DNA from: Deltaproteobacteria bacterium
GTDB lineage: Bacteria > Desulfobacterota > Desulfuromonadia > Desulfuromonadales > Geopsychrobacteraceae
Direction: 5' to 3'
Assembly (NCBI GenBank): GCA_024276905.1
Contig: JAJRWF010000148.1
Span: 9,821 to 73,820, forward strand
Length of the DNA: 64,000 bases
Position 1 is the stretch's first letter. Each line of letters begins with the position of its first letter. The notes beneath the pieces are model-generated. The model did not search any database. It worked only from the letters and a program-made list of their open reading frames with translations, and had not been told where the DNA came from. Of the stretch, positions 3,642 through 61,620 are shown in pieces. The translations under genes were made by a program, and so were the position numbers.

Positions 3642-3712
3642 TGGTCTCTCCATTTTTCGCCTCGATAGACACCCATACAATTATTCTTCCTGACTGCGGG
3701 CAATTGCCATTT

Positions 3713-26073: not shown

Positions 26074-27387
26074 TTAAAGTTTTTTATTCGATGTCGCATC
26101 TAACTTACGTACAATCTCACCCAGCATTTCCTTGCCGCTATCTCCCCTAAAACCATGCAGCGGCAGTAGATAAAACGCATCTTCAAAACGCCGGATGCCG
26201 ACCGCACGATAGGGGATAATAAACGCGGCACAGAGCCCGAGAATCAATATTACCGAGGCAATCCAGACAATGACCTCTCCCGGATCTTTCGACAACTGGA
26301 ACCCGGTGGTCCAGAAACCGGATTTGTCGCGGCCGTAGGCCGTCTGGTAGATTTTTACTCCGCGCCAGGTCAAAGGTTCATTGACTCGAATCGTCCCCTG
26401 CTTGACCACACGGCCTTTTTCAACAATCGCAACATCGCTTTCTATCTGCTTGACGATCGGATCGCGAAACTGAATATTCTTAGCCTGAAAACCGGGGTTT
26501 TTCAATCCTCCGAACCGCTCGCCGTCAGCAAACAGCAGGTAATCACCGACAAAAGCTCCACCACGGAAGATCCCCAGAGTCAGCACCTTGTCATCAGGAT
26601 TAAAATGTTTGACCAACACCCGCCAACGGCCGGCGGCCAACGCAATCGATTCTCCCTCCAGACGGGTGAATGTCCCGATTTTCTGTCCTTCTGCCGGGTC
26701 GACCAGATCAAAACGCAAAGTCATCGGGTAGTAGTGCAACTCAAAGCGGTCGACGCGCAGTGCAAAACCAAGCGGCTTGTCACTCTGACTGTCCCAATCG
26801 AAATAAATCCGGTTTTCATCGTGCAGATAGGTATTGATGGTGCCGACAAAACCTTGCTGACCAAGAACAGCGCCGAACATGATCGCCAGCAGACTACAAT
26901 GAACCAGGGTTGAACCCCAGCGTCCGGTGCGGCCACGCCGGGCCCAGAGCCGGTTCCCGGTCAGATCACCGCGATAACCGAGCCCGGCAAGAACGCTCTG
27001 CAGATCATCAAGGGATTCGTTCTTCAGCCGGATCGCGGCAGCGGGCAGTTGCGCCAGTTGTTCGGCAAAGCGCTGGCGGTCGCGCAGATTCCGACTTATC
27101 GTTCGGATAGTGCAAACCAACAGGTTCAGCGCCAGCAATAGCAACAGACCCCGAAACCAGGGGGATTGGTAGAAAAGATCGTAACGTCCCATTTCGGGAC
27201 GAACCACTGTCCCGGGAATCGCCACGACCGCCATCCCCAACAGCAGGGTGATTGTCAATTTAACCGAGCTGAAAAAACGCCAGAGAACCAAAATAGACCG
27301 TTTGCATGAGAAGAGCAGAACCAAACAGAACCTGCGCAAATGGTAACAGAAGGGCTGCGCCAGGTCATCATTTTTATCCTGTATCAT
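26074..27387 (-). CDS. ResB/Ccs1-like cytochrome c biogenesis protein (System II)
   Basis: 437 aa. N-terminal FSSVKLTITLLLGMAVVAIPGTVV TM, a large periplasmic segment, C-terminal TM. No ccsA/resC partner next to it. Confidence 0.65.
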   Translation of the reverse strand: MIQDKNDDLAQPFCYHLRRFCLVLLFSCKRSILVLWRFFSSVKLTITLLLGMAVVAIPGTVVRPEMGRYDLFYQSPWFRGLLLLLALNLLVCTIRTISRNLRDRQRFAEQLAQLPAAAIRLKNESLDDLQSVLAGLGYRGDLTGNRLWARRGRTGRWGSTLVHCSLLAIMFGAVLGQQGFVGTINTYLHDENRIYFDWDSQSDKPLGFALRVDRFELHYYPMTLRFDLVDPAEGQKIGTFTRLEGESIALAAGRWRVLVKHFNPDDKVLTLGIFRGGAFVGDYLLFADGERFGGLKNPGFQAKNIQFRDPIVKQIESDVAIVEKGRVVKQGTIRVNEPLTWRGVKIYQTAYGRDKSGFWTTGFQLSKDPGEVIVWIASVILILGLCAAFIIPYRAVGIRRFEDAFYLLPLHGFRGDSGKEMLGEIVRKLDATSNKKL

Positions 27388-27513
27388 TATCCCCCGGACC
27401 CGGTTGCCGAGCTTAATGTTCTGGTCTATCCTTCGACAATCCTCTACAATAACAGCGCGGATTTACTCAACCTGGCGACAACAAGCCAATCGTTTTCCAG
27501 ACAAGGCTTCTCC

Positions 27514-28269
27514 ATGAAAAAGTACCTCTATCTTCTGCTCGTCTGCAGCCTGTTTTTTACGGCCTGCCAATCTGAAAACACCGACCATTCCGCTTCGTTG
27601 TCACAAACAAGCAGCCCGGTAACAACCAGTGAAGCAACCAGCGACAAGACAAAAGAGAACCCGGCCCCGCAAGCAGTACCGCCATCCCCGCCGCTGTATG
27701 AAAATTTTCAGTCACGCCCGCAATTATCACTCTTTCCACGGGCCGGTGCTTTCCGGCCGGAGGACGATGATGAACAAGGACTCCAGTTCTGGCGTACCTA
27801 TATTGACCATATGGTCCGCACCTCTGGACCGATCAAGCCGGACGCAGATGCTGAAAATATCGTTTTTGGTTTTCGGGCGATCAAGGGACTTGATTCGGTC
27901 GGTGTTTTTGCTACAATCGCAGTCAAGCCGAGCACGTCTTACGCTGTCAGTGCCCGCTTCACCTGCAACCTGACCGAAGGTGCCAGCACCGGAATCGGCC
28001 TGCAGGAATTCAACAAGTTCATGTGGATAGGGGAACAATACTCCGAGTCTTTGGCCCGTCAAACGCAACTCGGAACGCAACAAGGTTTCAGTCTGAGCGG
28101 AAAGGTCGAAAAGCAGTTAAATACCTTCACTTTCACCACCGGCCCGGAAACAAGGATGGTCCACCTGATTTTCTTTCGTGATGGCAGCCATGACCGCAAT
28201 CCTGTCCTGATCGATGATATTGAAATCAAGGTTTCAGGCTCCAGTCAACATGCCCCGGAACAGAAATAA
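27514..28269 (+). CDS. hypothetical lipoprotein
   Basis: MKKYLYLLLVCSLFFTAC lipobox at the internal ATG 27514 (the track ORF starts at 27340, overlapping the ResB-like gene). Confidence 0.6.
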   Translation: MKKYLYLLLVCSLFFTACQSENTDHSASLSQTSSPVTTSEATSDKTKENPAPQAVPPSPPLYENFQSRPQLSLFPRAGAFRPEDDDEQGLQFWRTYIDHMVRTSGPIKPDADAENIVFGFRAIKGLDSVGVFATIAVKPSTSYAVSARFTCNLTEGASTGIGLQEFNKFMWIGEQYSESLARQTQLGTQQGFSLSGKVEKQLNTFTFTTGPETRMVHLIFFRDGSHDRNPVLIDDIEIKVSGSSQHAPEQK

Positions 28270-28342: not shown

Positions 28343-29374
28343 CTACCACATTTCTTCAACCAGCAGATCTATGCCACGCAGTGCCTGTCCGGTCTTGATC
28401 TGAATGGAGCTGTCCTGACTGCCGATATAACGACCGTAAAGTTCGCCCGGCCCCGGCGCACCCCCCAACTTATCACGTGCCGCCAGATAGTAGGTCCCAC
28501 CCTTCGGAAAGCTGAGAACGTACTCTCCTGCAGCGTTTGAGGGTTGTGAAACATAACGTGGTCGATTGAGCATCACTGCATCTGCGTAGAGCAGAACCCG
28601 GACTCCGGCAACCGGCGATCCGACGGCGTTGAGAATACGACCACGGACGCTGGTCTGACCGAACAGTTTGCCTGCCAGACGTTCGACCTTCTGTGGCACC
28701 TCGACCATGTCAATACCGATTCGCGCAACCTCGCCCTCTTTAATAACCAAGGGGTTTCCGGCGTAATAGCCGAAGAAATCTCCGGCCTGCAAGGGGCCGG
28801 AAAACTGGCCACTGTTGCGCTTGCGTGCCACCAGGTAATAGGTCCCTGCTGACAGCGCCATCTCGACGTATCCGGTTTCGTCAGACGGTGCCGTCATCCC
28901 CAGTCCCATTCCTTTCAGCTGGGTATTTAGATCGGTATATACCGTCAGCACGACCCCGGTGATCGGTTGGCCATGCAGACTGATCCTGCCGAGCACCCCG
29001 GTTTCAACCATGGGCTCATCTTCCGGTATGGGGGGCTGCCGCAACGACAGGGTCAGTTTAAGATCATGGGTTCCCTGGTGATTAATGTTGATCGGATTGC
29101 GTCCGTAGTAACCGAACTCGGACGCACCAGCAGCAATAAAATAGTATTCCCCGGGCTCCACATCGAGTTCGAAGCGACCGGCTTTGTCGGAAGGAGCAGA
29201 CAGGTAGGGAGCCTCACCCGTAAAATCAGTCGCTGACACCGGCCAGGCACTGACCCTTATTGCGGCAATTCCCTGGCCGGCAACCGCAACCTTGCCCGAG
29301 ACAGGGACGAGTCCGGCCACTACCGGAGTCACAAGAGACAGCATAAGGATAACAATTGAGAGGCTCAACTTCAT
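28343..29374 (-). CDS. secreted protein with repeated carboxypeptidase-regulatory-like (CarboxypepD_reg) domains
   Basis: Signal peptide, then three repeats of the type G.V...G.pi.g..V......fel.v.pG.Yyl.A. Confidence 0.65.
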   Translation of the reverse strand: MKLSLSIVILMLSLVTPVVAGLVPVSGKVAVAGQGIAAIRVSAWPVSATDFTGEAPYLSAPSDKAGRFELDVEPGEYYFIAAGASEFGYYGRNPININHQGTHDLKLTLSLRQPPIPEDEPMVETGVLGRISLHGQPITGVVLTVYTDLNTQLKGMGLGMTAPSDETGYVEMALSAGTYYLVARKRNSGQFSGPLQAGDFFGYYAGNPLVIKEGEVARIGIDMVEVPQKVERLAGKLFGQTSVRGRILNAVGSPVAGVRVLLYADAVMLNRPRYVSQPSNAAGEYVLSFPKGGTYYLAARDKLGGAPGPGELYGRYIGSQDSSIQIKTGQALRGIDLLVEEMW

Positions 29375-29418: not shown

Positions 29419-29457
29419 GACGAGAAAAGGCCGGGAATATCCCGGCCTTTTCTCGTC
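29419..29457 (-). terminator. strong hairpin terminator after 18-codon ORF copy 1
   Basis: GACGAGAAAAGGCCGGG-5 nt-CCCGGCCTTTTCTCGTC, a perfect 17-bp stem. Confidence 0.75.
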
Positions 29458-29476: not shown

Positions 29477-29533
29477 TCAGCAGGGATGAACGTTACTGCT
29501 GCCCACAACTTTAGGCTTCATGTACTTTTTCAT
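29477..29533 (-). CDS. 18-aa peptide MKKYMKPKVVGSSNVHPC (copy 1)
   Basis: AAGGAGG lies 5 nt before the ATG. Paralog of 31297..31353. Differences between the copies are synonymous or conservative. Too short for the ORF track. Confidence 0.55.
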   Translation of the reverse strand: MKKYMKPKVVGSSNVHPC

Positions 29534-29668
29534 CTTGGCCTCCTTGATCTGTGGTTATCGGTTAATCCGTGGTAGTCGGTGATAAAACGTAATTAACGCG
29601 GTAAGTTTACTTCTTTTCACGGCAGATTTCTACTGTTTCTACGAAATTTTCTATTGCTGATGAGATCT

Positions 29669-29684
29669 TGCAAAAAACAAACCA
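29669..29684 (-). promoter_or_regulatory. sigma-54-like -24/-12 element upstream of peptide copy 1
   Basis: The minus strand reads TGGTTT-GTTTT-TTGCA with correct GG/GC spacing, about 135 nt upstream of the ATG at 29533. The -24 half is weak. Confidence 0.4.
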
Positions 29685-29771
29685 GTGGTCAATTATCGAC
29701 CTTCCCTCTTTCGCCTGATTGCTCAAACCTCTATACTCGTATCTTCAAAATAACGCTATTTAGGAGTTTTT

Positions 29772-31073
29772 ATGTACCGCTACCTGCTGCTCTCCCTCTG
29801 CGTCACTTTATCCTTCCTCCCCATATCAGTTTCAACATCTTATGGAGGGGAAAAGATCCTCCTGAAAGATTCCATCAATGCCACAGTGTACGAAAGCGAC
29901 ACTGAAGCGCTCCTCAGTTGGCGAATGAACCTTCCTGGCAGGCCGACCCTTGTTCTGCTTTCAAACAACCCGTTCCTGACCCCACTCCCGGAAACAATCA
30001 AGACAGATATCAAGGATCTTGTTTTGCGAGGATCATCAGAACAGATCCGGCGCAAAGCTGTTATGACTGGCAGTGACCCTCTCCTTTACCCCGGCATGGG
30101 CCTCTCCGCCGCCCTGGACGCCAAACTTTTTTCTGAAGTCATCTGGATCATACCTCTCACCAAAGAACGTCCCTTACCAGAGTTGGAGATATTGAGCCAA
30201 CAACTGCGCGACCATGGCGTTATGTCCAAAACAGAACTCTCCAGCTTAAAGAAAGTTGATGATCATGTGAGCGGCAAGGTTCGTGGGATAGCATTCAGCA
30301 TATACGCGTCTCACTCTCTCCCGAAGCTCAAAAAAAATCTGGTGATGCACCTTGACCTTAGCTACTTTTCTGCCCTGTATCGCAACGAAATCAAAACCCC
30401 CATATACCCATTGATTGGGCAGCAATTGCGCAGCTGGAAAAACCAGAACTGGCCTGTTAAGCAAATCAGTATTTCACTGGGAAACCTGCTGGGAAACGTG
30501 CCTCTCGGAAGCCGCTTTATGGGAGACAACCTGCGGACCCTTTTTAACAAACCCAACATCCTGATGGATCAACTCCCACAAATCTGGCGTCTTCGAGCCA
30601 AGGCACTTTATCTCGAAAATTTCTTTAAAAAAGAAGAAATGCTGGAGATTTTCCAAAAAATGGATCAACTTGAACCGGAAAATGCGGCAACTCAATATGG
30701 TCTCTATCAGGTTCAAAGACGCTTCAAGAATGGGGACAAGGCCCTGCAGCACCTCGCCGAGGCAGTCCGTATAGACCCTGGATACGCCCTCGAATACTAC
30801 ACTCTTGCTGAGACCGCCCTCAAAAAGAAGCGACCGGCAGCCGCCCTGCAAATGCTCTCACTGGCATCAGCCCAGCAACCTGCCAACCCTGGCCCCTTGC
30901 TGCGACAGCTAGATATCCTCGTGCAAATCAACCACCCACAACCAATGGCGGGGCTGCTTGAACAATTAAACAAAATGACCTGGTCTGAGATCTATTACCC
31001 GGGCATGGGTAAGCACTTACAGCACTATCAGGACATCCTGGAGAAAAGTGCAGCGAAAAATGTTGTCGAATAA
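29772..31073 (+). CDS. hypothetical secreted protein with TPR-like C-terminal region
   Basis: 433 aa, N-terminal signal-like MYRYLLLSLCVTLSFLPISVS. The helical C-terminal third (...ALQHLAEAVRIDPGYALEYYTLAETALKKK...) looks TPR-like. Visibly more AT-rich than its neighbours. Confidence 0.6.
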   Translation: MYRYLLLSLCVTLSFLPISVSTSYGGEKILLKDSINATVYESDTEALLSWRMNLPGRPTLVLLSNNPFLTPLPETIKTDIKDLVLRGSSEQIRRKAVMTGSDPLLYPGMGLSAALDAKLFSEVIWIIPLTKERPLPELEILSQQLRDHGVMSKTELSSLKKVDDHVSGKVRGIAFSIYASHSLPKLKKNLVMHLDLSYFSALYRNEIKTPIYPLIGQQLRSWKNQNWPVKQISISLGNLLGNVPLGSRFMGDNLRTLFNKPNILMDQLPQIWRLRAKALYLENFFKKEEMLEIFQKMDQLEPENAATQYGLYQVQRRFKNGDKALQHLAEAVRIDPGYALEYYTLAETALKKKRPAAALQMLSLASAQQPANPGPLLRQLDILVQINHPQPMAGLLEQLNKMTWSEIYYPGMGKHLQHYQDILEKSAAKNVVE

Positions 31074-31256
31074 TCGCGATATCCGGACAGGAAAGACCTT
31101 TACGGAGAAACACAGGTCTTTTGCCTAATTGTGGCTCTATCCCTTGATAATTTCAACGGCATCTATAAAGAAGGGGTGCTGCAGCGGCTTGGTTTAATGT
31201 GAAACACCCGAAGATAACCGGGGTTAGCATACCTTCACTACTGCAATCAGGAAAAC

Positions 31257-31289
31257 AGAAGAGGGCCGGGAAAATCCCGGCCCTCTTCT
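31257..31289 (-). terminator. terminator closing the megacytochrome operon / peptide copy 2
   Basis: AGAAGAGGGCCGGG-AAAA-TCCCGGCCCTCTTCT. On the minus strand it is followed by a T-rich stretch (GTTTTCC). The core GGCCGGGA..TCCCGGCC is shared with the 29419 terminator. Confidence 0.75.
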
Positions 31290-31296
31290 TTGTGTA

Positions 31297-31353
31297 TCAG
31301 CAGGGATGAACGTTACTGCTCCCTACTATCCGTGGTTTGACATACCTTTTCAT
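31297..31353 (-). CDS. 18-aa peptide MKRYVKPRIVGSSNVHPC (copy 2), last cistron of the cytochrome operon
   Basis: GAGGAG precedes the ATG at 31353, 20 nt after the stop (31374) of the 2330-aa gene. The last 8 codons plus stop are identical to copy 1. Confidence 0.55.
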   Translation of the reverse strand: MKRYVKPRIVGSSNVHPC

Positions 31354-31373
31354 CTTATTCTCCTCACGTAAGC

Positions 31374-34300
31374 CTACCATGGGGTAACCGTGTTCCAACC
31401 TTTACCGTCCATATCTCCCAAGCCATCACCACCGCGGCCCAATTCGCCGACAGCACCGACACGGTGACAGTTCTGCGAAGTCGACCAGTTAGAAGCGCGC
31501 CAGCCGTCAGAACGAGACGGCGTCTGAGTGGAGGTGTCAGTATCCGCAGACATCCCTGTTGCATCGTCCCAACTGTTATGTTGGGTGTCGAGGCAGTTGG
31601 TAATCATCAGCTTCGGCAACCGCGATGCATGCGGATTATGACACTTGGAGCAGGTGAACTGATGGTACTGATTCACCAATTGCGGACTGGGATTGCCAGG
31701 GTTAGCACTCTGATCACCAGCCGCCATAATGAAGCCCCACTCAAACCAGTTATTTTTGTACGGCTCGGGCTCTTTGAAGCCATGCGAGGGTGCATAAGCT
31801 GGTGTGTAACTACCATCATCCCGATAACCATATCCCTCAGGACGATCGTAGTTGGCTCCGTCGCCACCGGAATGGCCCATTTCGATAGTATAACCTTTAG
31901 AATTTATCTCATTGGCACTACGATCCAGGATATCGGTCGCATTGCCGCTGGCTGTTCCGGTACCACCAATAACGGCGTTGGCGTGACCATTGGTTCCGAC
32001 CCACATGTTATCTCCGGTCGGCGCATAGTCCATGGTATTTACACTGGTTCCATGACACAGGGTACACAATCCAGCTATTTCACCGACGGTATCATAAGCG
32101 GTATTAGAGCTGACCGGATAGGTTCCGACACCCTGAGCCGTCATATTCTGGTCAATCCAGTACCCGCCTTTGGCCTGACTGGACGCGTTAAAGAAATCTT
32201 CACTGATACTGCCACGCGGAACCCGGTTGTAGTTGGTCGTCGTTTCAAAGGTCGTGGAGCCACTCAAGTTCTGCGGTGCACCATCCTCAAAGTAGGGATT
32301 GCCGAACCAGCTACCGCGCAGGTAAGGCTTACCGGTCATCGTATCACTCGTCGCTTGATTCCGGTTATGTACGTCATGACAATAACTGCAGCGAATCTTG
32401 GCCACCGCATCCGGACTCTCAGTGCGTCCGTAAGCCGCCCCTGTCACGGCACTGCTACCGGCCGCATTAACCGTGTGCGTTGACTGGATGGCTGCTTCCT
32501 TGTATGTGAAGTTCGCACTCTGCCAGGTACCGACCAACCAGTTCGAGTTACCGGTACTCATCTGACCGAAATTATAGTCAGGATAAGCCCCGTTGGTATC
32601 AGTATTGAGACCCCACTCACTGATGCCATTGATATCATGACATGTCCAGCAGATTTCAGCCTCTGTGGTTTTTGCACCCGTTGCGGTTCCACCCAACCAG
32701 ATACCGCCATGGGTCGTGTAGTTGATTCCAACCGTAGTGTTGTTGGCAACCTGGACATCGCCACTATGGAAACCATGACACTTCTGGCACTGCAATGACC
32801 AGTCGGTGGTTCCATTCACAACATCTGCAGTCACAGCCTTCAGGTGAGAACCGTAAAGCTCGCCAGTAAAGCCACTGTTCCCGGCCGGGTAAACAACTGT
32901 CGGCCCGGTGCCACCAGGTGCATGGCAAAGATCGCAGCTACCGCCGCCGAAGTCACCGAACCCGACACCCCAACTCGAATCAGCCAGGTTATGACTGGTC
33001 GATGCGCCACCGTGACAAGCATTGTCGCAGCCCCAGTTGGTGGAGTTGTAACCGGCACCGGTACTCGGCGTCGGCCCATTCATGGTGATCAGACCGTTAC
33101 CATGGTCTCCGGTCCCCCAGGTTGCGGTGTAGTTAGCGTTGGTTGCGCCCGGTGCAAAGCCGTGGCAGGTTTCGCACTCAGCATGGTTGGCCTGCACTTC
33201 GGGAGTGCCATCGGTATCCCAGTCATTGGCATGGTTGACCAGAACATTAGCGCGCCAGCTACCCCAGATCCCGTGACAGGTTTTACACTCATCTCCGGCA
33301 GCACCGCCGCCCGAGGCCCAAGTCTTGTTATTCAGGCGTGCCCAGGGAGTACTGACGCCACGACTGGCGTCAAGGCCTTCCTTATGGCAGGACATGGCAC
33401 AGGTATCAAGGTCTGAACTGGTTCCAAGGGTTATCCCGGCAACAAAGTCGGTCACAGCAGGGCGATTCATGGCACTGGACGCCAGACCTGTGTCACTGAA
33501 GTGGTTCGCCGGTTGGCCATTATGGCAGGAGGTACAGGCGACACTGGAACCATGATTCTGACCACTGACGACACCAGTGATGCCGTGCATACCACTGGTC
33601 GCGCTGTTGTATTCGGTCGCGACACTTTCCGCCTTGTGGCAGCTGGTACACTGCGTATTGGCGTCAATGGTACCGGTCCAGGCCGGGGTGATCTGGCCGC
33701 CGTGGCAGCTGATGTTGCTGCACTGGGTTGTGTATGCCGGAGTCCCGGCTGACAAATCATCGTAGGTGGCAGCGACACTGACCTGCACCGTGCCGTCAGC
33801 ATGGGTGTTGCCAGTATGGCAATAATCACATTTGGCCTGGACCGCAGTACCGTTATTCACCTGGGTTGAAAGTGAAACACCGAGGGCCGTAAAGTGCGCA
33901 TTGTGTGCGCCTGTAGAAGGCCATGGCTCTCCGGCACCGTTGTTGTGACAGCTTGCGCAGCCATTACTCAATGCTCCGCCCCAGGTCGGTGTGCTGGTGA
34001 AGTGACAATAGACGTTGGAACAGTTACCGTACACAGCACTGGGCGCCAGACCACCGGTATTACCGGTCGTTGTCCCAGCATAAGTTGCACTACCGGCAGC
34101 ATTGGTCGGCAAAGCGCTGACGTCCCATTGTACGTTACCGTTCATATGACCAGCCGCACCGGCAGTCGCACCGTGGCACTGGTTACAGGCCAGAGCCAGC
34201 GTACCGGCATGCGTCGCATGGCTGCTGGTACTCGGCGGAGTCACTGCGGTGGCTCCGTGGCAATCACCACAAACAACTGCGGCATCCCAGACCGGGCCGC

Positions 34301-37300
34301 TGCCTCCGATAGATCCACCATGACAGTAAACAGCAGCGCAGGTTTTTGTCCCATCACCTGCAACACTCCCGTTATTGTAGTTAACCCCGGTTTGACCAGA
34401 GTACGTTCCGGTAACAGAAGTGCCTCCACCACCGGCACTGAAATCGGCGTTGAAGTGGATATCAATATCGCCGCCGTTAGGCATCGCATTACCATTGTGG
34501 CAGGTATTGCAATCTGTATAGCCCTGAACATTGACGTGAGCATCATGGGCACCAGGGGTTACGCTGCCCGTAACTACCGGACTCCAGGCCAGACCAGTCT
34601 GGGTACTACCATCTGCATCGGCTGTAGTCGGCGGGTTGCCGTGACACGCGTCGCAAGCGGTCGGCTTGAAGCCCTGCTTGTGATTGTGACAGTTCATGCA
34701 ATCGGTGCTCAATTGGTGGTTCTGGTTGGTCGCCGTCGCGGCACTCATATCAAAAGCGTGGTGCTGTACCCCGTTGACCCGAGTTTCGTCCAGGGAGTGA
34801 CAGACTTCGCAGACACCGGAGCTTGCAGTATGTCCGCCGACAGCATCACCATAGTCACTTGTGGTGTCGCGAGTATCCGTCAAGGTGACGGCACTGGAGA
34901 TGGCACCGTTAGGCATGGTACTGCCATCGGGAAAGCTGATCGTCTGTCTGATCCGCTTGATATTGGTTGTTGTATCTACGTGACAGGTATCGCAGGTGAA
35001 TTCGCCATATTTGGCCCCTGCCAGACCCCAGCCACCCAGTGAATTCCACTTGCTGGAACCAGTCGCCGCCGAGTTATGCAACATTGAGTTGCTCGGCACC
35101 TGATCGGTGAAGATCTGAACCGCGTTACCGGTAACCCCATCGACAGCGTCAATGTAGGTGACACGCACCTGGTAAACCTGACCGTTAGTCAGCCCGGGAA
35201 TACTGTAACCATAGGGGCTGGCGGCATGGGCAATAACACCCGAGGTATTGGGGAAGGAGGTACTGTCGCAGTTGGTGAGCGACGGACAGGTTCCCCATTC
35301 AACGGTCAGGGTGTTGTCCGTATTGAAGTCACCACTGTACGGTGCACTGATATCGACCGACTTGTTTTTACTTGCGACCTGGACCACACCGGCTGCGGTA
35401 TCGAGAGCGTTATTAACCGAAATACTGTTACTGGTCGGACCAACAACTGAACCGCCGCAGTCAGGATCAGTACCGGTCACCTCAAAAGTTACCACCTGCG
35501 GACCAGTGGTGCCAAAGGCAGTGCTGTCCCAGGGGCTGGTGACCGTAGCACCGTTAATTTTGTAAGTGAAGCCCGTAGCATTCCCGGGAGCAGGGATGCT
35601 GAACAGAGTGGTCAGATCAACCGTACTGCCGCCAACAGTCTGCGACGGCGGAATAACAATTGACGAGGGGGTCGCGTCAGTACAGGTATTATCAATTGAA
35701 ACCGCTGTGATCTGCGGGGCAGAGACAGCATCACTACAATCGGGGTCACTACCATTAACATCGATAGTGATGTTGTTTTCAACCGCGGCAGTACCGCAGG
35801 CACTGGTATCCCAACTGTATTCCCAACGCGTGGTGCCAGCGTTCCAGGTCATGGCGGCGGCAGCAACATTACATGCGCTACTGCCAGCGACCGACACCTG
35901 CATTCCGCTCATGGTCGCCGGTGTTGTTTCCACACCGACCGCGGTCTGCAGAGTTACAACTCCGGTAGCAGGGTTGGGGTCACTGGTGGTCAGGGTCGCC
36001 AGGTCCTTGTCTGTGGTGTCAAAGGCTGTAGCAGCCGTCTGGGCATTCAGTATACCGCAGTCACCGGTTCCCTGGGCACGGAAGATGACGTTACCCGTAA
36101 TACAGGAAGTCGGAGTGTAGGTCGAACCATTAGCAACCCAGGCGCTCCAGCTCGTGCCGCCATCTTCGCTCCAGCTGACCTGGATTCCAGTAGCGGTGCC
36201 ACCAGCAGTCACGGTTACTGCACCAGTAATCGGCGTGGTACTCGGGGCTATGACTGGAGCAGTCAGGGTTGATGTTTCGGTACATGAACTCCAGGTAAAG
36301 CTCTGACTGGTACCCGGAAGAGCAGTACCGCCGACATAGTAAACTGTTCCACATTCAGGATCAGTTCCACGCGCGTAGAGATTGTAGCTGTTGCCCGTGG
36401 TTAAAACTGCAGTCGCTTCTTGCGGATCAAGGTTCCAGGCCAGGCGCTCTACTTCTGAGGATCGGGGTGTTCCAGTAAACGCAAGGTTGTCAAAAGAGAT
36501 GTCATTCTGATAGCCGGAGGCCGTTCCAACGACATAGCGGAAGCGCAGTTTAAAATCTGCGTTGGTATAGGCACTCAGGTCAATCGGGCCCTCGGAATAC
36601 CACTGAGCACCACCATCGCCAAGACGCACCATCCCATTAGCGACAACATATACATCCGCCACCCAACTGGTGCCGTTCCATGCGTCAAGGTGCAGCTCTG
36701 CATCTGCGTTAGTGCCACCGAGATCCATCATATAATCAAAATTGAAAGTAAGCGAATACTGACTTGCATCCTTAACGTTACTTTCCAGATACTGTGAACT
36801 TCCTGTGGTCGTGCCAGTCGCACAAGCATTCTGTCCGTTGGCAGACGCCTCAAGGTAAATCCAAGGACGTGGATTGCCAGCAACGGTTCCAGTGCCGCCG
36901 GAAGCTGTCCCGTTTGCATTATCCGCATAGCACCACGAATTAGTTCCATCACTCCCATTCACACCAATCCAGTTTGTCCAGCCGGTCTGAGCGGTATAGA
37001 GCGTTAAATCACCACCTGATGCTGCTGAAAAATCGTCAGTCTGAGGTGTAAACGGCGGGGCAAAACTACCTTCCGTCACCCGAAATTCCAGACTGGTCAA
37101 GTCAACCGGAGTAACAAAACTGGACCCAGTAAAATCACCTGCTGCGGAGGTCGTCCCGTTGAAGCTGATGGAAGATGGCGTTAGTTCGGTACAAGTCGGA
37201 GTTGTTACATTAGCCGTATTGGAATCAGCGCTGTCACAGGCGCCAGCAGTATTGTGCCCACGGACTGTATAGGAATAAGTGGTCCCAGCCGCTGCAGTTG

Positions 37301-38366
37301 CATCTGTATAAGAACCAACCGTTATGTTAGTCGCTATTTGCGCACCATCACGAAAAATCGTGTAATAATCGTTATTTGTCCCATCATAGGTCCAGGTCAG
37401 ATTGACCTGAGTAGAAGATGGTGCGTTGGCTGCTAAATCAGAGGGAGCAGTCGCTACACAGGGTGGCGTCTCAACGCAAGGAACAGCATTGGTGTAGGTA
37501 TCGTCTCGCTTCAACGTACGCTGAACCCGATCATTAATGTTATTGGCCTGCCATTTGACGAAACCCCAGTCTCCGTTGGCAATTCCGGCACCGGCAAAAT
37601 CTGCCGGAAAGGAAAACTGCCAGGTGGTACCAGTCTGAGTCACGTTAGTTGAAGCCGTCACATCAACCTTGGTTCCAAAATAATCGTTCAGTTCAACTTT
37701 TTTCAACTGGTTGTCTGAATTCGTAACAGTGACAGTTGCGTACACAGTGTCGCCATTCCCGAAAGTATCGGTCTGATTTGTCCGCGCGGCATCACTGTAA
37801 AACCACATTCCAGTTGCTGGAGAACCAAGCTGAACAAAACCACCAGCTTTATAATTGCCGTTATTGGCGTCCGAAACTTCAACCGCATAAAAATCGACGT
37901 TTGCGCCGCCGGTATTCCAACTGTAGCTATAGGTGTAGAATCCCCCTGTATGACCCGTTTCGGTCATAGCGACTTTGTCGAGAATTTTATTCTTCAGTGA
38001 GTCATCAACTTTCAATTCAAAAGCATCACGGTTGGCAGTAGGCACCTTGAAGGAAATCACGACCGTGTCTCCAACAGTGAACGCAATGCCAGCGGTCCCA
38101 CCGACGCTAGTCGTAAGCTGCTCACCGCTGCCGAGAGTAAAATCACCCGTCGACTGACAAACTGCAGCGAAGAGACTGCCGGCCGAAAGCATTACCGCCA
38201 AAACGGCCACCAAAGCCAGGTGTGCAAATCTGAACATCGGGGGGGTCCTCCAGATTCCATCCTTCATAGCCGTCCTCACCTCATTCCCAGTCACTTTATT
38301 CCCAATTAGATCATTCACTTGTCGATTACATGTGCCAAAGAAAACTTCCCGTAGTCGTTTCATCAT
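31374..38366 (-). CDS. 2330-aa chimeric surface protein: heme-free Ig/FN3/MAM-like N-terminal half plus C-terminal multiheme cytochrome (about 19 CxxCH and 5 CX3-4CH)
   Basis: Signal-like MFRFAHLALVAVLAVMLSAGSLFAA begins at residue 44 (alternative starts 38267 and 38237). FN3-like PSDLAANAPSSTQVNLTW...YSYTVRGHN. MAM/ConA-like ...FKLRFRYVVGTASGYQNDISFDNLAF. The first heme motif, CDTCH, appears only at about residue 1120. Confidence 0.9.
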   Translation of the reverse strand: MMKRLREVFFGTCNRQVNDLIGNKVTGNEVRTAMKDGIWRTPPMFRFAHLALVAVLAVMLSAGSLFAAVCQSTGDFTLGSGEQLTTSVGGTAGIAFTVGDTVVISFKVPTANRDAFELKVDDSLKNKILDKVAMTETGHTGGFYTYSYSWNTGGANVDFYAVEVSDANNGNYKAGGFVQLGSPATGMWFYSDAARTNQTDTFGNGDTVYATVTVTNSDNQLKKVELNDYFGTKVDVTASTNVTQTGTTWQFSFPADFAGAGIANGDWGFVKWQANNINDRVQRTLKRDDTYTNAVPCVETPPCVATAPSDLAANAPSSTQVNLTWTYDGTNNDYYTIFRDGAQIATNITVGSYTDATAAAGTTYSYTVRGHNTAGACDSADSNTANVTTPTCTELTPSSISFNGTTSAAGDFTGSSFVTPVDLTSLEFRVTEGSFAPPFTPQTDDFSAASGGDLTLYTAQTGWTNWIGVNGSDGTNSWCYADNANGTASGGTGTVAGNPRPWIYLEASANGQNACATGTTTGSSQYLESNVKDASQYSLTFNFDYMMDLGGTNADAELHLDAWNGTSWVADVYVVANGMVRLGDGGAQWYSEGPIDLSAYTNADFKLRFRYVVGTASGYQNDISFDNLAFTGTPRSSEVERLAWNLDPQEATAVLTTGNSYNLYARGTDPECGTVYYVGGTALPGTSQSFTWSSCTETSTLTAPVIAPSTTPITGAVTVTAGGTATGIQVSWSEDGGTSWSAWVANGSTYTPTSCITGNVIFRAQGTGDCGILNAQTAATAFDTTDKDLATLTTSDPNPATGVVTLQTAVGVETTPATMSGMQVSVAGSSACNVAAAAMTWNAGTTRWEYSWDTSACGTAAVENNITIDVNGSDPDCSDAVSAPQITAVSIDNTCTDATPSSIVIPPSQTVGGSTVDLTTLFSIPAPGNATGFTYKINGATVTSPWDSTAFGTTGPQVVTFEVTGTDPDCGGSVVGPTSNSISVNNALDTAAGVVQVASKNKSVDISAPYSGDFNTDNTLTVEWGTCPSLTNCDSTSFPNTSGVIAHAASPYGYSIPGLTNGQVYQVRVTYIDAVDGVTGNAVQIFTDQVPSNSMLHNSAATGSSKWNSLGGWGLAGAKYGEFTCDTCHVDTTTNIKRIRQTISFPDGSTMPNGAISSAVTLTDTRDTTSDYGDAVGGHTASSGVCEVCHSLDETRVNGVQHHAFDMSAATATNQNHQLSTDCMNCHNHKQGFKPTACDACHGNPPTTADADGSTQTGLAWSPVVTGSVTPGAHDAHVNVQGYTDCNTCHNGNAMPNGGDIDIHFNADFSAGGGGTSVTGTYSGQTGVNYNNGSVAGDGTKTCAAVYCHGGSIGGSGPVWDAAVVCGDCHGATAVTPPSTSSHATHAGTLALACNQCHGATAGAAGHMNGNVQWDVSALPTNAAGSATYAGTTTGNTGGLAPSAVYGNCSNVYCHFTSTPTWGGALSNGCASCHNNGAGEPWPSTGAHNAHFTALGVSLSTQVNNGTAVQAKCDYCHTGNTHADGTVQVSVAATYDDLSAGTPAYTTQCSNISCHGGQITPAWTGTIDANTQCTSCHKAESVATEYNSATSGMHGITGVVSGQNHGSSVACTSCHNGQPANHFSDTGLASSAMNRPAVTDFVAGITLGTSSDLDTCAMSCHKEGLDASRGVSTPWARLNNKTWASGGGAAGDECKTCHGIWGSWRANVLVNHANDWDTDGTPEVQANHAECETCHGFAPGATNANYTATWGTGDHGNGLITMNGPTPSTGAGYNSTNWGCDNACHGGASTSHNLADSSWGVGFGDFGGGSCDLCHAPGGTGPTVVYPAGNSGFTGELYGSHLKAVTADVVNGTTDWSLQCQKCHGFHSGDVQVANNTTVGINYTTHGGIWLGGTATGAKTTEAEICWTCHDINGISEWGLNTDTNGAYPDYNFGQMSTGNSNWLVGTWQSANFTYKEAAIQSTHTVNAAGSSAVTGAAYGRTESPDAVAKIRCSYCHDVHNRNQATSDTMTGKPYLRGSWFGNPYFEDGAPQNLSGSTTFETTTNYNRVPRGSISEDFFNASSQAKGGYWIDQNMTAQGVGTYPVSSNTAYDTVGEIAGLCTLCHGTSVNTMDYAPTGDNMWVGTNGHANAVIGGTGTASGNATDILDRSANEINSKGYTIEMGHSGGDGANYDRPEGYGYRDDGSYTPAYAPSHGFKEPEPYKNNWFEWGFIMAAGDQSANPGNPSPQLVNQYHQFTCSKCHNPHASRLPKLMITNCLDTQHNSWDDATGMSADTDTSTQTPSRSDGWRASNWSTSQNCHRVGAVGELGRGGDGLGDMDGKGWNTVTPW

Positions 38367-38476: not shown

Positions 38477-41400
38477 TTACTTGGGAAGCTGGGTATGGCA
38501 GAGGTCACAAGAGGCCCCCGCAGTACCCCAGGTTGCGGTATTGCCGTTATGGCAGGTCACCGTACAATTCTTGGTTGCACCGGTCCACATGGTCGCCGTA
38601 TTGAGGGCAACACCTTGATCGTGCGACGTGGTGCCCGCCTTGTAGCCGTTGGTCCGCGTCCAGTTGTTGTTCAACTCAGGCTCACCCGGGGTGAAATCCC
38701 GTACCTGGGCTTTGGACCTTAGCGGATTAACCGGAGCAAAGGTGACATCCCTGGTTCCGTTGACATGGAACGACTTATCAAGATCAGCCTGAACAATGAC
38801 TGTCTTGTCAGTCGCCACACCTGCGGTCCCATGACAGCTGACGCATGCCGTGTTGTTGCCGTTGAACCACTGACTGACGGTGCTGTTGTGGCAGACCGCA
38901 CAGGTAATGGTCAGCGCGGTAGTCACGTCACCATGACCGGCTCCACTGGCTCCCGCCTCGTTAAGCTTGGCATTGGTGCCATCGTAGATGTCATCACTGT
39001 GGATACCGATAACATGTTTCGGGTGGCTGCCCGTCAGCGGCTGATTGCCATGACAGTTCTGGCAGTAGTCGCCATTCGGATTAGTGAAAGTCCCCGTCAA
39101 GAAGTCGGGGCTGTTGCCAGGCGTGACACCATCACCATGACAGTAGACCGCCGAGCAGGTTCCGCCGGAATAAGCTGCGGTTGCACCATTCTGACCCTTG
39201 ATACTGCTCGGAGCATCAGTCGGGTCAAGAATCAGATCAAGGACTCCGTTCTGGTGATTGCTGGCATTCGCCGGGTGACAGAGGGCGCAACCAAAGTCGT
39301 AATCTGTCGCCGTAGAATGATCCACAGTGTCGCCATAGCTGCTGGCTGCCGACAGGACATGCTTGCCATGAGCGCCAGTCCGGGCGTTGAAAGTGTAGGT
39401 GCCGACGGTATTGAGATTATTACTGCCGCCAGTTGCCAGGTGGCAGGCGTTACAATCTGCCGCCGGACCAGCAAGACCGTTGGCCGGGAAGTGGGCCGAG
39501 GTTCCAAGGGTATGCGGGGCATCGTTGATATGGCAGATATTTGTACAGTTTCCGTTGGCCATGTCATAGCCGACCGAATCATTCAGTTCGACGGCGTGTC
39601 CCGGTGCGGAAAGTTCTGTCGGGGTACCGAGAGTCGAATTGGTGTCGTGATAGGTCGCCACATCATATGGCGCATTCGGCCGAACATGACAGGTCGCGCA
39701 GTTACTGTGCGTGCCGTCATTGATTGCTGTTTTGGTGCTGTGGTCCGGTGTCATCCCGGTCCGCCAGTTATTGAGATAACCGTGACAAACGTTACAGCGC
39801 GGATCGCCAACCGTATTGGAAACCGAATCGGCATCCTTGCTCCAAAGACGCTGCCAATTCCCAGCATCGCTGTGACAGCTGGAAGCACAGGAATCGCTGG
39901 TGCCGACGGCCGCCTGGGTGAATACGGTGATATTACCGCTGGCGCTGATACCACGATCATTATTGACCGCTGAATCAGTGGCGAAAGTGCCGTTGATATG
40001 GGTAGAACCAGCCGTATTTCCTATCACTGGCATACTGTTGTGACATTCGACACAACCGGTACCAAGAGTCGCGTCATGAACCTGGACCTCAGTCGGGTTG
40101 TTGACCACAGTGTGCAATCCGGTAGTCGGGTTGGCACCAGCAACACCTGGTGAATGACACATGGTACAGGTGCTGGCTCCGGCATCAGCCCAACCGAAGG
40201 TCCCGGTACCTGTGACTTTACTGTTGTGACAATCGATATTAGAGCAACTGCCCGCAGCAAAAGCAGCGTCGCTGTCAAGCGCGCCCCAGAGGCTCTTGGC
40301 GTGACGGATATTATCTTTATCAACAAAGACTTCGGCCGGCAGATTAGCCGTCGAACCATGATCACTGTCGTTCGTATTCGCTGCATGACAGTACTCACAG
40401 AGAGCCTTCTGATCAGAATCAGCAGTCGTACGGTTGAGCACTGCTGCGGCGCTGACACCGTAGACCCGCTGCGCGAGAACGTTCATATGTGTGAGGTGAC
40501 GTCCGGCATCGTCCGGTCCGGCTGCGCCGTCGTTGCCGTCCGGCCAGTAATTGCTGGCATTGGTGCCGACAGTGCCGCCACCGTGACAACCGTTACAACC
40601 GCTGGGTTTAAAGATCGGCGTGCTGGTATGGCTGTGACAGGTGGTGCATATCTGACCAGCGTTATGGGTTGCCAGTTCCTCAGTGGTGCGGTTGAAGTGC
40701 AGAACTTCGGTCGCATCGTGGCAAACCTGACAGACACCGTTGTTGGCTGCATTTCCGTAGCTGGCCCGCAGCGTACGATCCGTAAAGCCACTGACCGGGT
40801 GTGCCTGGATGGTTGACGCAATCATCGCATCCTGGTTGCCATTCTGACCATGCTGATCGTGACAGGTGACACAGATCAATGCATCATCAGAAGTGCCGCC
40901 GGCGGTCTGGGTATTGCCAAAGTGTGCCGCCGAGTTAGGAACGCCGGTGTGGCAGGCGTTACAGAAACCATTCGGATCAACATTGTAATCCTTGGTAGCG
41001 ATAGTATTCAGCCGGTTGGTGGTGTATCCGATATGGTCACCGGCATGATTGTGACAATCGACGCAAGCCTTGGCAACACCGGCCTTGCCGTGACCACTGT
41101 TGTCATAAGCCGTTCCGGCACGAACTGGTGCTAGAGCACCGTTGACATTTGCTTGATTGTAATCACCGTGACAGGTTTCACAAGCGACCGGCCCACCGGC
41201 ACTCCAGACCGCCTTGGCACCAATAGTGGCAAGATTCACCGCCGTGGTTCCACCATGACAGGTATCGCAAACCGTCACCGTGGCATCTCCGGCGATAGCG
41301 CCTGTTGCCAGTTCTTGTGCACCGGCAAAGCTGATCGTACCGTTTATGTGGGTTGCCTGACCGGCCATACTGACATTACCGGCATTAGCGGCGTGGCAGA

Positions 41401-44400
41401 GACCACAGTTGGTGCTGCCACCAGTACTTGCAAACGGACCGTACCTGATGTTGACATCAAGGTGTGTCGCATGGCCACCAGTGGTCGGCATATTGTTGTG
41501 GCAGAGCAGACAGTTCTGAATATTGGTGGTTCCCCAGGTGTAGGTACTGTTGTTCGGGGCACCGCCCTGACCGTTATTGTGACAGACAGTGGTTCCGCAA
41601 CTGCCGACACCAGAGTCGGGTAGCGCCACTTCACCTGAGTACTTGCCGTCCACCACCGGGCTGATCTGTGCACCGGTAATCACCGTGCCACCAAACTGGA
41701 CCGCCTGGTTAACAGTCGTCGGACCGGTGGTGGCAATGAAGTGCCCGTTGTTGACGTTGGTCGGGTGGCACTTGTCGCAACTGATGGTAATACCGAAGGT
41801 CGCCGTAGCATTGAGGTGGTTGGCATGAGTTCCTGTCGCCATCTTGGTGCCGACCTGATCATCACCATGACAGAGGGTACAGGAAGCAGTATCGGTGTCC
41901 CAATCTGCAGTCTTTGTGCTGTTGGATGGATCGTGGCAATAGGTGTTAGAGCAGGTATTGTTTACATCATCAAAGGTAATTCCTGCCTGGTCGAAACTGC
42001 TGTCATCAACCAAAGCATTATCCGCAATCGGGGTTGCTTTATTGGTCAGAGTCTCACCCTGATTGGCACCGGCAGCACCGGCAGCATCGAGACCGCTGAT
42101 ATGGCTGGTATCAGTCGGCAGTGCCGTCCCGGCATCATGACAATTGTCGCAAGTCAGACTTTGCGTCGTCACGTGACCGACATGAGCACCCGCTACTGGA
42201 GCAGCATTGGCTATATTATTATCATTGGTCCCGTTGTTATGACACGCGGTACAATTCAACCCGTTGGTATCAGTCCAAAAACCATCGGCAGCGCTGGAAG
42301 CATGACATGCCGAAGCGCAGCCTGCAGTCGCCGTGGAAAGACCGGTTTGAAGCTGAATAGTGCCATCCTGGTGGGTGTTGCTGCCACCGTCTCCACCTGT
42401 TGGAGTATATCCATTGACATCAGCACCATGACAGACAACGCACTCGCTGACGTCAAGCTGAATACTGCCGGCGATGTCAAGGTGCGCAGTATGTGTTGTC
42501 CCTACATAACTGAGATCCCCATGACAGGCTTCGCAGGAAGCGGCATTGGTCCAGGTTTTCGGATTTACCTGGTGACAGCTGACAGTACAACTTGACGGCG
42601 CCCCCTGGGTGTAGGAGAGAGTAACCGCCGACCCATTATAATTACCGCCTGCAACGACGTCGTTAAAACCGCTGACATTGGCTACAGCATTGAGATGGTT
42701 TCCGCCAGGCGTAATCTGGAAGCCCGGAGTCGCGGTACCACCATGGCAACTTTGACAACTGAGTCCATTCGACTGGCGCAAGGCACTCCAATGACTCTGG
42801 TGATCGCCAGTGACAGGGGGCTTCAGGTGACAGATCGTACACTTGTCAGCAGCCGTGTTATCGCCCCATACCGGGGATGGTACATACGCGAAGTAGGGAG
42901 CAGCAGTATCATCGTTAATACTATGACACTGCGAGGTTGAGCAGCTTCCGACACCGGTTGTGGGAATGCCGACTTCACCGCTGTAGGTCAGGCCAGCCAG
43001 AACTTCTAGAGTTCCATTACGGTGAGCGGTATTGATGCCGTTGTCGGTATGACACTCGGTACAGACGACATTATCACCTATCAAGGTCGCATTGTTCACA
43101 TGCTCCGAGTGACTGCCGGTCGCCATCGGCGTAGTGGCAGCAGTATCGTTGTGGCAGAGAGTACAGCTGGCGACGCTGACTCCCCACTGAGCCGACTTCG
43201 GATCTCCAGCATCATTTGACGGATTGTGACAAGTTGTATTGGAACACGTATTGGTGGTGTCGTTGAAACTATTTACGCCACCATTGAAGGCCTGATCATT
43301 GACAGTCGCCTCATCCGCCAAAGCAGTTCCCATATCGGTGAGGATGTTGGCGTCAGTATCTGCCAACAGCGCGGTACTGACAACATCATCAATGTGAGTC
43401 AGCGGATGAGTACCGGCAGAGTCAACGCTGCCATGACAGTCAGTACAGCTCAGCCCTGCGGTGATATGTTTGGCATGAGCTCCGCTTGCTGGTGGCTGGG
43501 CGTGACAGGCCGTACAATCGAGACCGTTAACGTCACCCCAGTTACCATCAGTTATTGATGAGGTATGACAGGCGTTGGTACAGGTCAGATCGGCCTGGAA
43601 ACCGACGGCAACATCCACATTTATCGTACCATTGCGGTGATTGCTGCCATTCCCGGTTGGAATAATCGAAGTGGTGTAGAAATCAACATCAGTGCCGTGA
43701 CAAAGAACACATTCGGACCGATCATCCTCAATCTTGGTGTTGAAGGTGTTCTTGTTGACATGCGACAGGTGCGGCTCGGTCGCCAGCAGGGTATCGTGAC
43801 AGGCGCCGCAGCTGTTGGCGTTGGGCTGGAAGATCGGAGTGTCGGTGTGTTTGTGGCACGAAGTACAAACGTTACCGGCGAAGTGCGTAGTATCTTCGTT
43901 GCCGATACGGTTGAAGTGGGTGACCTCACCGGGATCATGACAGACCTGGCAGATACCGCTGTTGTCGGCCTCCCAGTAACTGGCGCGCAGAGTCTTGTCC
44001 GTGAAATTGTTGACTGTCCGTCCACCAATGGTCCCCAGAATCATGGCATCGGTATTGGTTCCCATTCCCTGACCGTGGGGATTATGGCAGGTCGCGCAAT
44101 TCAGAGCATCATCGGAGGTGCCTCCGGCAGTCAGCGTATTGGCATAGTGAACTGAGCTGGTATGGCAACTGGTACAGAACGTGTTATCTGCAACCGCGGC
44201 TCCGATCAACTGTGGATCACCAGATGTGCCATCGAAGTGCTTGCCGGCACTGGTGTCGTGACAACCAATACAGTCCGGAGCGCCAGTCAGGGTCGAATCA
44301 CCATGGCCGGTGATATCAAAAGTATCTTTTGCCGGAGCCGTCGGGCCACTGATAACGGCAAAATCCGCCAGGGTTCCCTGGTGGCAGGTACGACAATTGA

Positions 44401-50383: not shown

Positions 50384-50466
50384 AGTGATGCCTCCTGAAA
50401 ATAAGAGTCGCGGGCCATCTGAGGCCCCTGGCGCTCCAAGTGTCTGGTTTCCTGCATGCGTTGGAT

Positions 50467-50482
50467 TGCAAAGATGATACCA
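50467..50482 (-). promoter_or_regulatory. sigma-54 -24/-12 promoter of the megacytochrome operon
   Basis: The minus strand reads TGGTAT-CATCT-TTGCA with exact consensus spacing (GG..N10..GC). It lies 84 nt upstream of the ATG at 50383 and directly downstream of the sigma-54 activator gene. Confidence 0.6.
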
Positions 50483-50522
50483 GTCACAAAAAAAGCCAAA
50501 CTCCAGCACATCACAGACAAAT

Positions 50523-50557
50523 AAGTGGCCGCTGAAATGCTGAAACAGCGGCCACTT
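50523..50557 (-). terminator. 12-bp perfect hairpin after the activator gene (terminator and/or activator-binding palindrome)
   Basis: AAGTGGCCGCTG-11 nt-CAGCGGCCACTT, located between the stop at 50594 and the -24/-12 element. The downstream T-run is weak. Confidence 0.45.
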
Positions 50558-50593
50558 GGGGAACATCCGAGAGCAAATTAAAATTGGGGGGAG

Positions 50594-51964: not shown

Positions 51965-52012
51965 AATAGTGTCTCCTTATCCCAGCGCGGGAGAACTCCT
52001 CCCGAGGCTCGA

Positions 52013-61514: not shown

Positions 61515-61583
61515 CGTTGGGCGTTGGGCGTTGGGCGTTGGGCGTTGGGCGTTGGGCGTTGGGCGTTGGGCGTTGGGCGTTGG
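61514..61583. repeat. perfect tandem heptamer array (GCGTTGG)x10
   Basis: Ten uninterrupted copies, starting on the last base of the nikR stop codon. Confidence 0.95.
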
Positions 61584-61620
61584 GAAGAATAGGTTGAGTC
61601 AGGTGTTGCTTCAACAAAAA

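Follow-up and report, generated by a model that had tools for sequence, protein, structure and literature searches.

The subject of this study is a pair of very short open reading frames (ORFs), each of 18 codons, on the minus strand of a 64,000-nt stretch of contig JAJRWF010000148.1 from a deltaproteobacterium of the Geopsychrobacteraceae (the whole stretch is from here on referred to as the window). The pair raises the question of whether ORFs of this size are genes at all and, if so, what their product is made for. Judged by the way in which their codons vary between genomes, both are translated genes of one conserved peptide family, and the peptide is probably the ribosomal precursor, and thereby the substrate, of the GeoRSP system, in which a radical SAM/SPASM enzyme is accompanied by a PqqD family peptide chaperone.

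The two ORFs and their relatives

Copy 1 (29477..29533, product MKKYMKPKVVGSSNVHPC) begins with an ATG at 29533 and ends with a TGA at 29479-29477, and copy 2 (31297..31353, product MKRYVKPRIVGSSNVHPC) begins with an ATG at 31353 and ends with a TGA at 31299-31297. A Shine-Dalgarno sequence is found ahead of each on the same strand, AAGGAGG at 29539..29545, 5 nt ahead of the ATG of copy 1, and GAGGAG at 31360..31365, 6 nt ahead of the ATG of copy 2. A preliminary description of the window had reported both ORFs with strong Shine-Dalgarno sequences, copy 1 standing alone and copy 2 as the terminal cistron of a cytochrome operon. All of this was confirmed, the minus strand being an addition: copy 2 begins 20 nt past the TAG stop codon (31376-31374) of a 2330-aa multihaem cytochrome, and a 238-nt spacer lies upstream of copy 1, reaching to a divergent TPR gene. 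The repeat analysis of the window returned the two copies as a 75-nt direct repeat with 76% identity, and no third copy was found in the window, even with relaxed peptide patterns.

GC-rich hairpins around GGCCGGGA...TCCCGGCC, noted earlier, are indeed present on the 3' side of both copies. The one following copy 1 was read from the sequence at 29419..29457 (minus strand) as GACGAGAAAAGGCCGGGA-loop-TCCCGGCCTTTTCTCGTC, with the core stem GGCCGGGA/TCCCGGCC and then TTTTCT. It is likely an intrinsic terminator, possibly a bidirectional one, and is missing from the consensus terminator scan because its T run falls within the extended stem. For copy 2 the terminator scan itself gave an intrinsic terminator at 31257..31289 (minus strand), consisting of a 15-bp stem, a 3-nt loop and then GTTTTCC.

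Relatives were searched for by back-translating Y-x-K-P-x3-G-x2-N-V-H-P-C to a degenerate 41-bit DNA pattern, with which one genome per species was scanned (596 Gb); by our own estimate, made for a uniform base composition, about 0.5 matches are expected by chance in 596 Gb. The scan gave at least 117 stretches comprising 120 instances, and the counts of loci and instances throughout are among those listed. The carriers among the listed matches are Desulfuromonadales, Geobacter, Nitrospiraceae/Thermodesulfovibrionia and single metagenome-assembled genomes labelled Chitinophagales and Phycisphaerae. The family consensus is M-K-[KR]-Y-x-K-P-[KR]-V-V-G-S-[SAG]-[NS]-V-H-P-C with a length of 17–20 residues, and two variants go beyond the search pattern, a Ser replacing the Asn before V-H-P-C.

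All 120 instances have an in-frame ATG, then Lys and then Lys or Arg, 3–5 codons ahead of the Tyr, and all 120 have a stop codon immediately past the Cys, both start and stop lying outside the search pattern. The stop codon is TGA in 66 instances, TAA in 48 and TAG in 6, and the first Ser is encoded by AGC (51), TCA (16), TCC (15), TCT (12), TCG (10) or AGT (9). At both Val positions all four GTN codons are used with the amino acid constant, and frameshifts or internal stops were found in none of the 120 instances. With start and stop fixed, the wobble positions free and Ser switching between AGY and TCN codons, the family bears the mark of selection on the peptide and not on the RNA. This bears out the proposal that the peptide is translated, originally made from the two window copies, in which 9 of codons 1–11 differ, as recounted here, by five synonymous changes (codons 4, 6, 7, 10 and 11) and four conservative ones (K>R, M>V, K>R, V>I); the same drift of wobble bases under fixed amino acids runs through the 120 instances. 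A Shine-Dalgarno-like motif is located ahead of 111 of 118 copies, and in the 70 nt downstream a folding energy below -25 kcal/mol was obtained for 75 of 115 copies, compared to 12 of 119 control windows, the hairpin sequences varying from locus to locus.

The last 24 nt of the window copies had attracted attention for being identical and for containing a small AGCAG...CTGCT inverted repeat. Both features are present in the window, where the 24 nt occur only twice even when 3 mismatches are allowed (shuffled sequences are expected to give 0), but they do not extend to the family: among 31 paralogue pairs from 17 other assemblies none has this identity, the paralogues differing at 1–5 of the 8 final codons with varying Ser codons and stop codon. 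In these paralogues synonymous differences average 0.58 per comparable codon over the 5' half and 0.38 over the 3' half, the corresponding values between genomes being 0.63 and 0.46. The window pair is the extreme case with 5/5 synonymous differences in the 5' part and 0/8 in the 3' part. For the lower variation of the 3' half codon preference and a constraint at the mRNA level are both possibilities, and the identity of the 24 nt, being local to the source genome, would be explained by local gene conversion or by chance on top of codon preference. The codons favoured throughout the family for N-V-H-P-C are AAC GTT CAT CCC TGC. An RNA element within the 24 nt was also considered and is ruled out by the wobble drift, by the paralogue comparison and by the Rfam search of the region, in which nothing came near the threshold.

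Genomic contexts and the GeoRSP cassette

When all ORFs of the 117 loci were clustered and the recurrent clusters annotated, three contexts appeared. In the first, class A (37 of 117 loci), the gene is situated exactly between the genes for a 334-aa radical SAM/SPASM protein and a 315-aa SPASM-only protein, downstream of the gene for PqqD. The complete order runs from NosD-like beta-helix proteins, a PhnD-like binding protein, a 180-aa protein, YedE (TIGR04112) and PqqD to the radical SAM/SPASM protein, the peptide, the SPASM-only protein, a TIGR01977 cysteine desulfurase family protein, a small lipoprotein, PhoH and TsaD. In class B (52 loci, including the type of the window) the peptide gene closes an operon, coming after the gene for a giant multihaem cytochrome (42) or for an FG-GAP protein (11), and is often followed downstream by those for a CarboxypepD_reg protein, a conserved protein of 309 aa and a TPR protein, and in 7 loci for a ResB-like protein. 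Class C (7 loci) has the gene between an HD-domain-like protein and a membrane protein, labels that were read off the sequences, and 21 of the 117 loci fall outside the three classes. A GC hairpin with a T run is found 3' of the gene in class A and class B loci alike. The same peptide, e.g. MKKYMKPRVVGSSNVHPC, can be found in both of these classes, and 10 assemblies contain a class A copy together with copies in other contexts. From these data the fixed slot in the cassette and the sharing of peptides between cassette and cytochrome contexts can be read directly, as can translation and the conservation of the family.

The identity of the cassette follows from its enzymes. The radical SAM protein scores 421–449 bits on TIGR04303 (cutoff 400), carries a CX3CX2C motif and has homologues in Desulfuromonas, Geoalkalibacter, Geopsychrobacter and Geothermobacter which are named 'GeoRSP system radical SAM/SPASM protein' by NCBI; the next-best models are AhbD (208 bits), MftC (199) and NirJ (184). 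For the PqqD partner the best model is TIGR04302, 'GeoRSP system PqqD family peptide chaperone', with 91–95 bits (43 in locus L120) and a cutoff of 100, and for the SPASM-only partner, which is homologous but divergent, it is TIGR04304 with 75–114 bits and a cutoff of 300. A recurring 'SALLEI' upstream of the peptide gene was examined as a promoter and is actually the conserved C-terminus of the radical SAM protein, PHCWK*, in another frame.

Cassettes were also fetched independently of the peptide pattern, by radical SAM homology. The best 120 homologues all come from Desulfuromonadales-type organisms or metagenome contigs, and 4 of 4 Desulfuromonadales-type cassettes retrieved in this way hold the peptide gene, uncalled, with the radical SAM gene on one side and the SPASM-only gene on the other. 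They come from the complete genomes of Desulfuromonas versatilis (AP024355.1) and Geoalkalibacter halelectricus (CP092109.1), an ENA contig and a Logan contig, the last with the variant MSYMKPKVVGSSSVHPC. The GeoRSP operon of D. versatilis is preceded by a sigma-54 regulator (L118, 1-410). In L122, another of the fetched cassettes, the spacers 630-990, 3500-3690 and 5041-5624 are full of short motifs in tandem repetition (GGAATCT, GTGGAAA/GTGGAAG and the like), and the usual slot does not contain the peptide gene.

Two more distant PqqD-radical SAM-methyltransferase cassettes, with radical SAM proteins 43% and 36% identical to the GeoRSP enzyme, bear on the division of the peptide into parts. 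Just upstream of PqqD each contains an uncalled small ORF with a strong Shine-Dalgarno sequence (L123 1620-1676, MKHYKKPKVRRVICNTTQ; L130 3502-3564, MKMQYSKPKAEKLNYKLLTD), and both products have the MK..Y.KPK start of the family and different C-termini. These ORFs likely encode the precursors of two further undescribed systems with an MK..Y.KPK leader. A common start with differing ends is the pattern expected if the start is a leader recognised by this clade of PqqD and the core is made up of the last 8–10 residues. Beside another PqqD-radical SAM pair an ORF preceded by a Shine-Dalgarno sequence (L129 1190-1264) encodes MKEDIKLPYESPDDGGGGDLPIFY, with aromatic C-terminal residues, and may represent a further precursor type.

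The kind of system, a radical SAM/SPASM enzyme and PqqD acting on a short ribosomal peptide, is already known; what is new is this peptide family. PqqA is a very short ribosomal peptide of about 23–29 aa with an aromatic-x-K-P start, and in both respects the family peptide resembles it. In the pyrroloquinoline quinone (PQQ) system the N-terminal leader of PqqA is bound by PqqD and the C-terminal part handled by PqqE (PMC10906245). Here, too, a separate PqqD is found together with a radical SAM/SPASM enzyme, which would act on a conserved C-terminal part, and from its conservation the core would seem to yield a product of the cofactor type and not an antibiotic that varies. Unlike PqqA, the family peptide lacks Glu and the E-x3-Y motif and matches neither Pfam nor NCBIfam, including the PqqA model, the radical SAM enzyme scores 98–124 bits on PqqE (cutoff 381), and the cassette is without homologues of PqqB, PqqC and PqqF and has the extra SPASM-only protein. 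A PqqD-like chaperone is shared with the mycofactocin system as well, and among characterised proteins MftC is one of the nearest to the GeoRSP radical SAM enzyme (162–199 bits), but this is under the MftC cutoff of 265, the peptide ends in VHPC and not in GVY, homologues of MftD, MftE and MftF are missing from the cassette, and the partners are cytochromes and not nicotinoprotein dehydrogenases. MftA is likewise a short peptide, with the chemistry taking place at its extreme C-terminus and the product serving redox enzymes (cf. PMC3023750).

Ranthipeptides/SCIFF differ in that the family peptide has a single Cys, and the models for sacti- and ranthipeptide maturases give at most 109 bits on the radical SAM enzyme, far under their cutoffs. 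The radical SAM/SPASM enzyme QhpD cross-links QhpC, the small subunit of quinohaemoprotein amine dehydrogenase, which is complexed with a c-type cytochrome. The likeness here, for which no sequence relationship is claimed, is that of a small radical-SAM-processed peptide encoded alongside a cytochrome gene; QhpC is much longer, with several Cys and its own protease and exporter. With the NCBIfam GeoRSP models (TIGR04302, TIGR04303 and TIGR04304) the cassette agrees in that the radical SAM protein passes its cutoff and the PqqD and SPASM-only proteins, although under theirs, have GeoRSP models as their best, and the difference is that NCBIfam has no model for a substrate peptide in this system.

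In the preliminary description the Y-x-K-P start had been compared to PqqA-like precursors of peptides that are made on the ribosome and modified afterwards (RiPPs), and the 37 loci with PqqD and radical SAM/SPASM alongside agree with this. The idea of an S-[2-aminovinyl]-cysteine (AviCys) ring found no support, a LanD/HFCD flavoprotein or a Ser/Thr dehydratase being absent both from the window and from the clusters conserved around the 117 loci. That a maturase is lacking in the window was correct, and in related genomes a maturase is a standard neighbour.

Several observations weigh against a GeoRSP precursor. The 64-kb window contains none of the GeoRSP genes, so that the link rests on other genomes, and the PqqD (43–95 bits against 100) and SPASM-only (75–114 against 300) partners stay under the curated NCBIfam cutoffs. 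Two GeoRSP-like cassette types, L122 and the high-GC L127/L128, do not have the peptide ORF in the gap between the radical SAM and SPASM genes, and the 20-residue forms of Geobacter and Nitrospirota were seen only beside cytochromes and never in a cassette. No leader protease or dedicated exporter was found among the conserved neighbours or in the fetched cassettes, and the core is almost invariant, unlike that of typical antimicrobial RiPPs.

Cytochromes and other neighbours in the window

The gene directly upstream of copy 2 (31374..38366, minus strand) encodes the 2330-aa multihaem c-type cytochrome, with a TIGR01904 domain and 19 CxxCH motifs, and the first giant gene of the same operon (38477..46726, minus strand) encodes a 2749-aa multihaem cytochrome with 57 CxxCH. 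The 2330-aa protein ends in a C-terminal module (31374-31560) with the sequence FTCSKCH.PHA..LP.LMITNCLD...QNCHR...GWNTVTPW*, which is missing from the 2749-aa protein. About 26 giant cytochromes encoded directly upstream of the peptide gene (including those of L013, L017, L055, L061, L062, L075, L103 and L108) end in a common module, FTCSKCH.PHA..LP.L.ITNCLD followed by 20 to 45 variable residues, (A)QNCHR and GWNKVTPW*. In the 2330-aa cytochrome the CH of the module (residue 2300) is the sole one of 25 that falls outside a short CXnCH motif, and it may be a long-spacer haem-binding site. A split haem motif, in which this lone CH would pair with the Cys of the peptide, was considered and set aside; a long CXnCH motif is the simpler reading since the tail has an upstream Cys of its own (ITNCLD).

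The other genes around the two copies recur in the family. Between the copies lies the gene for the 433-aa TPR protein (29772..31073, plus strand; cluster C22, 12 loci), and downstream of copy 1 that for a 343-aa CarboxypepD_reg protein (28343..29374, minus strand; cluster C11, 23 loci), followed by a 309-aa conserved protein with no family match (27340..28269, plus strand; cluster C20, 14 loci) and a 437-aa ResB-like cytochrome c biogenesis protein (26074..27387, minus strand; 7 loci). The ResB-like gene is without an adjacent CcsA-like gene, and this arrangement downstream of the peptide gene is repeated in the 7 loci; its product could be a dedicated haem-attachment factor for unusual cytochrome motifs. 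At 24820-25947 (plus strand) a DUF362 protein with a 4Fe-4S dicluster domain is encoded, and with 70–74% identity its DNA matches genes in the neighbourhood of the peptide gene in L031, L043, L074, L087 and L108; identity to the window does not exceed 74% in any of the fetched loci. The region 47585-53491 (minus strand), upstream of the cytochrome operon, encodes an NHL/PEGA/FG-GAP protein of 993 aa along with a sigma-54-dependent response regulator and a HAMP histidine kinase; ahead of the D. versatilis GeoRSP operon a sigma-54 regulator is found as well. A perfect tandem array of the heptamer GCGTTGG, repeated 10 times (Tandem Repeats Finder score 142), is located at 61514-61584.

Proposed role and alternative readings

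In the mechanism we propose the N-terminal MK..Y.KP[KR]V would be a leader held by the GeoRSP PqqD-family chaperone. From it the GeoRSP radical SAM/SPASM enzyme would receive the C-terminal core VGSSNVHPC, which is invariant, and the SPASM-only protein encoded next door would probably take part. That PqqD binds the peptide, that the radical SAM enzyme modifies it and that it plays any part with the cytochromes is here what we infer from gene order and homology. The enzymes AhbD, MftC and NirJ catalyse oxidative decarboxylation or other chemistry on carboxylates or on the C-terminal residue, and since these are the nearest models a modification at or near the C-terminal His-Pro-Cys, and there at or near the Cys, is favoured by analogy. 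The hairpin 3' of the gene could let the precursor transcript outnumber those of the enzymes. The window copies would then be extra precursor genes, one alone and one co-transcribed with two giant extracellular multihaem cytochromes, so that the peptide, as we propose, would be made whenever those redox proteins are. With its near-invariant core and its extra copies behind extracellular redox proteins the family resembles cofactor-type peptides more closely than antibiotic RiPPs. As a tentative and less probable extension, the matured peptide may be a new peptide-derived redox cofactor or prosthetic partner made by GeoRSP, possibly with extra sulfur or selenium, and used by or attached to the giant cytochromes of metal-reducing bacteria. 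Such a role would account for the near-invariant core, for the copies at the ends of cytochrome operons and for the conserved C-terminal module of the cytochromes.

The cytochrome side of the family also invites a reading without any modification, in which the peptide is an accessory of the extracellular redox machinery (as one of its subunits, as an assembly factor or, through His-Pro-Cys, as a ligand of haem or metal) and its slot in the cassette reflects shared regulation. A small peptide family linked to cytochromes had been suggested from the window alone, and this is borne out by the 52 of 117 loci in which the gene closes an operon behind that for a giant cytochrome or an FG-GAP protein. 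The accessory reading gains from the same loci, from the common module ...NCLD...QNCHR...GWNKVTPW* in about 26 of those cytochromes, from the ResB-like and CarboxypepD_reg genes recurring nearby and from the Geobacter and Nitrospirota copies being seen in the cytochrome context only, and a fixed binding partner is compatible with a near-invariant core. It is nevertheless unlikely in view of the exact position which the gene keeps, flanked by the radical SAM and SPASM-only genes and beside a dedicated peptide chaperone, in 37 listed and 4 independently retrieved loci, and of the related PqqD-radical SAM cassettes, which encode ORFs with the same leader. The peptide moreover has no signal sequence, and extra export machinery would thus be needed for it to reach extracellular cytochromes. 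A quite improbable variant of the GeoRSP precursor reading makes the peptide a small carrier of sulfur or selenium, or the acceptor for their insertion, with the C-terminal Cys loaded (as a persulfide or selenide, or by S/Se insertion) by the co-operonic enzyme resembling desulfurases and selenocysteine lyases together with YedE, and with the SPASM proteins taking part. The cassette is flanked in about 25–31 loci by the YedE-family putative selenium transporter (TIGR04112, 400 bits, cutoff 200) and by the TIGR01977 cysteine desulfurase family protein (405–430 bits, cutoff 377), for which the selenocysteine lyase SclA is the next-best model. In many genomes the YedE and desulfurase genes adjoin the cassette closely, D. 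versatilis for instance having the end of the SPASM-only gene at 8196 and the start of the desulfurase gene at 8198, in L122 a PF11823 Se_S_carrier gene is added after the desulfurase gene, and the NosD-like and PhnD-like genes upstream point in the same direction. In L120 and L127/L128, however, YedE and the desulfurase are both lacking although genes for PqqD, the radical SAM protein and the SPASM-only protein are present, which places the sulfur and selenium genes outside the minimal cassette, perhaps as lineage synteny.

A short ORF followed by a strong hairpin, a T run and, in the cassette loci, downstream genes has the layout of an attenuator, and the two copies in the window have 24 nt in common and terminators that resemble each other. 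In this reading the peptide itself would be without function, the unit being a leader-peptide attenuator, a repeated terminator cassette or a small RNA. This we regard as very improbable indeed, as the full amino acid sequence is kept across phyla while the codons drift, free of frameshifts or internal stops in the 120 instances, the hairpins differ among loci, the 24-nt identity is not repeated in the 31 paralogue pairs elsewhere and Rfam gave nothing near threshold. Furthermore, the copies of the window, and those of many other loci, have no gene following them on the same strand.

The family has passed largely unseen. Searches of the peptides against NCBIfam release 20 and Pfam with E-values up to 10 produced no meaningful match, a KR domain (E 0.25) and DUF5972 (E 0.22) being all that came up, and an exact look-up of ten 20-residue variants in a collection of 15 billion proteins found none of them. 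The gene is uncalled in the annotations of D. versatilis and G. halelectricus. The searchable literature, subscription-only papers aside, holds no description of the peptide or of a GeoRSP substrate, and one Desulfuromonas genome paper has just an antiSMASH 'RRE-containing region'.

For the GeoRSP system, which has been curated without a recorded substrate, the peptide provides a concrete candidate of 18 residues, from a family that escapes gene callers. The selenium and sulfur genes in the cassette suggest a chemistry not yet described for this enzyme class. In Desulfuromonadales, Geobacter and Nitrospirota the gene is repeatedly placed behind giant multihaem cytochromes, which suggests that the peptide is an unrecognised small component of extracellular electron transfer.

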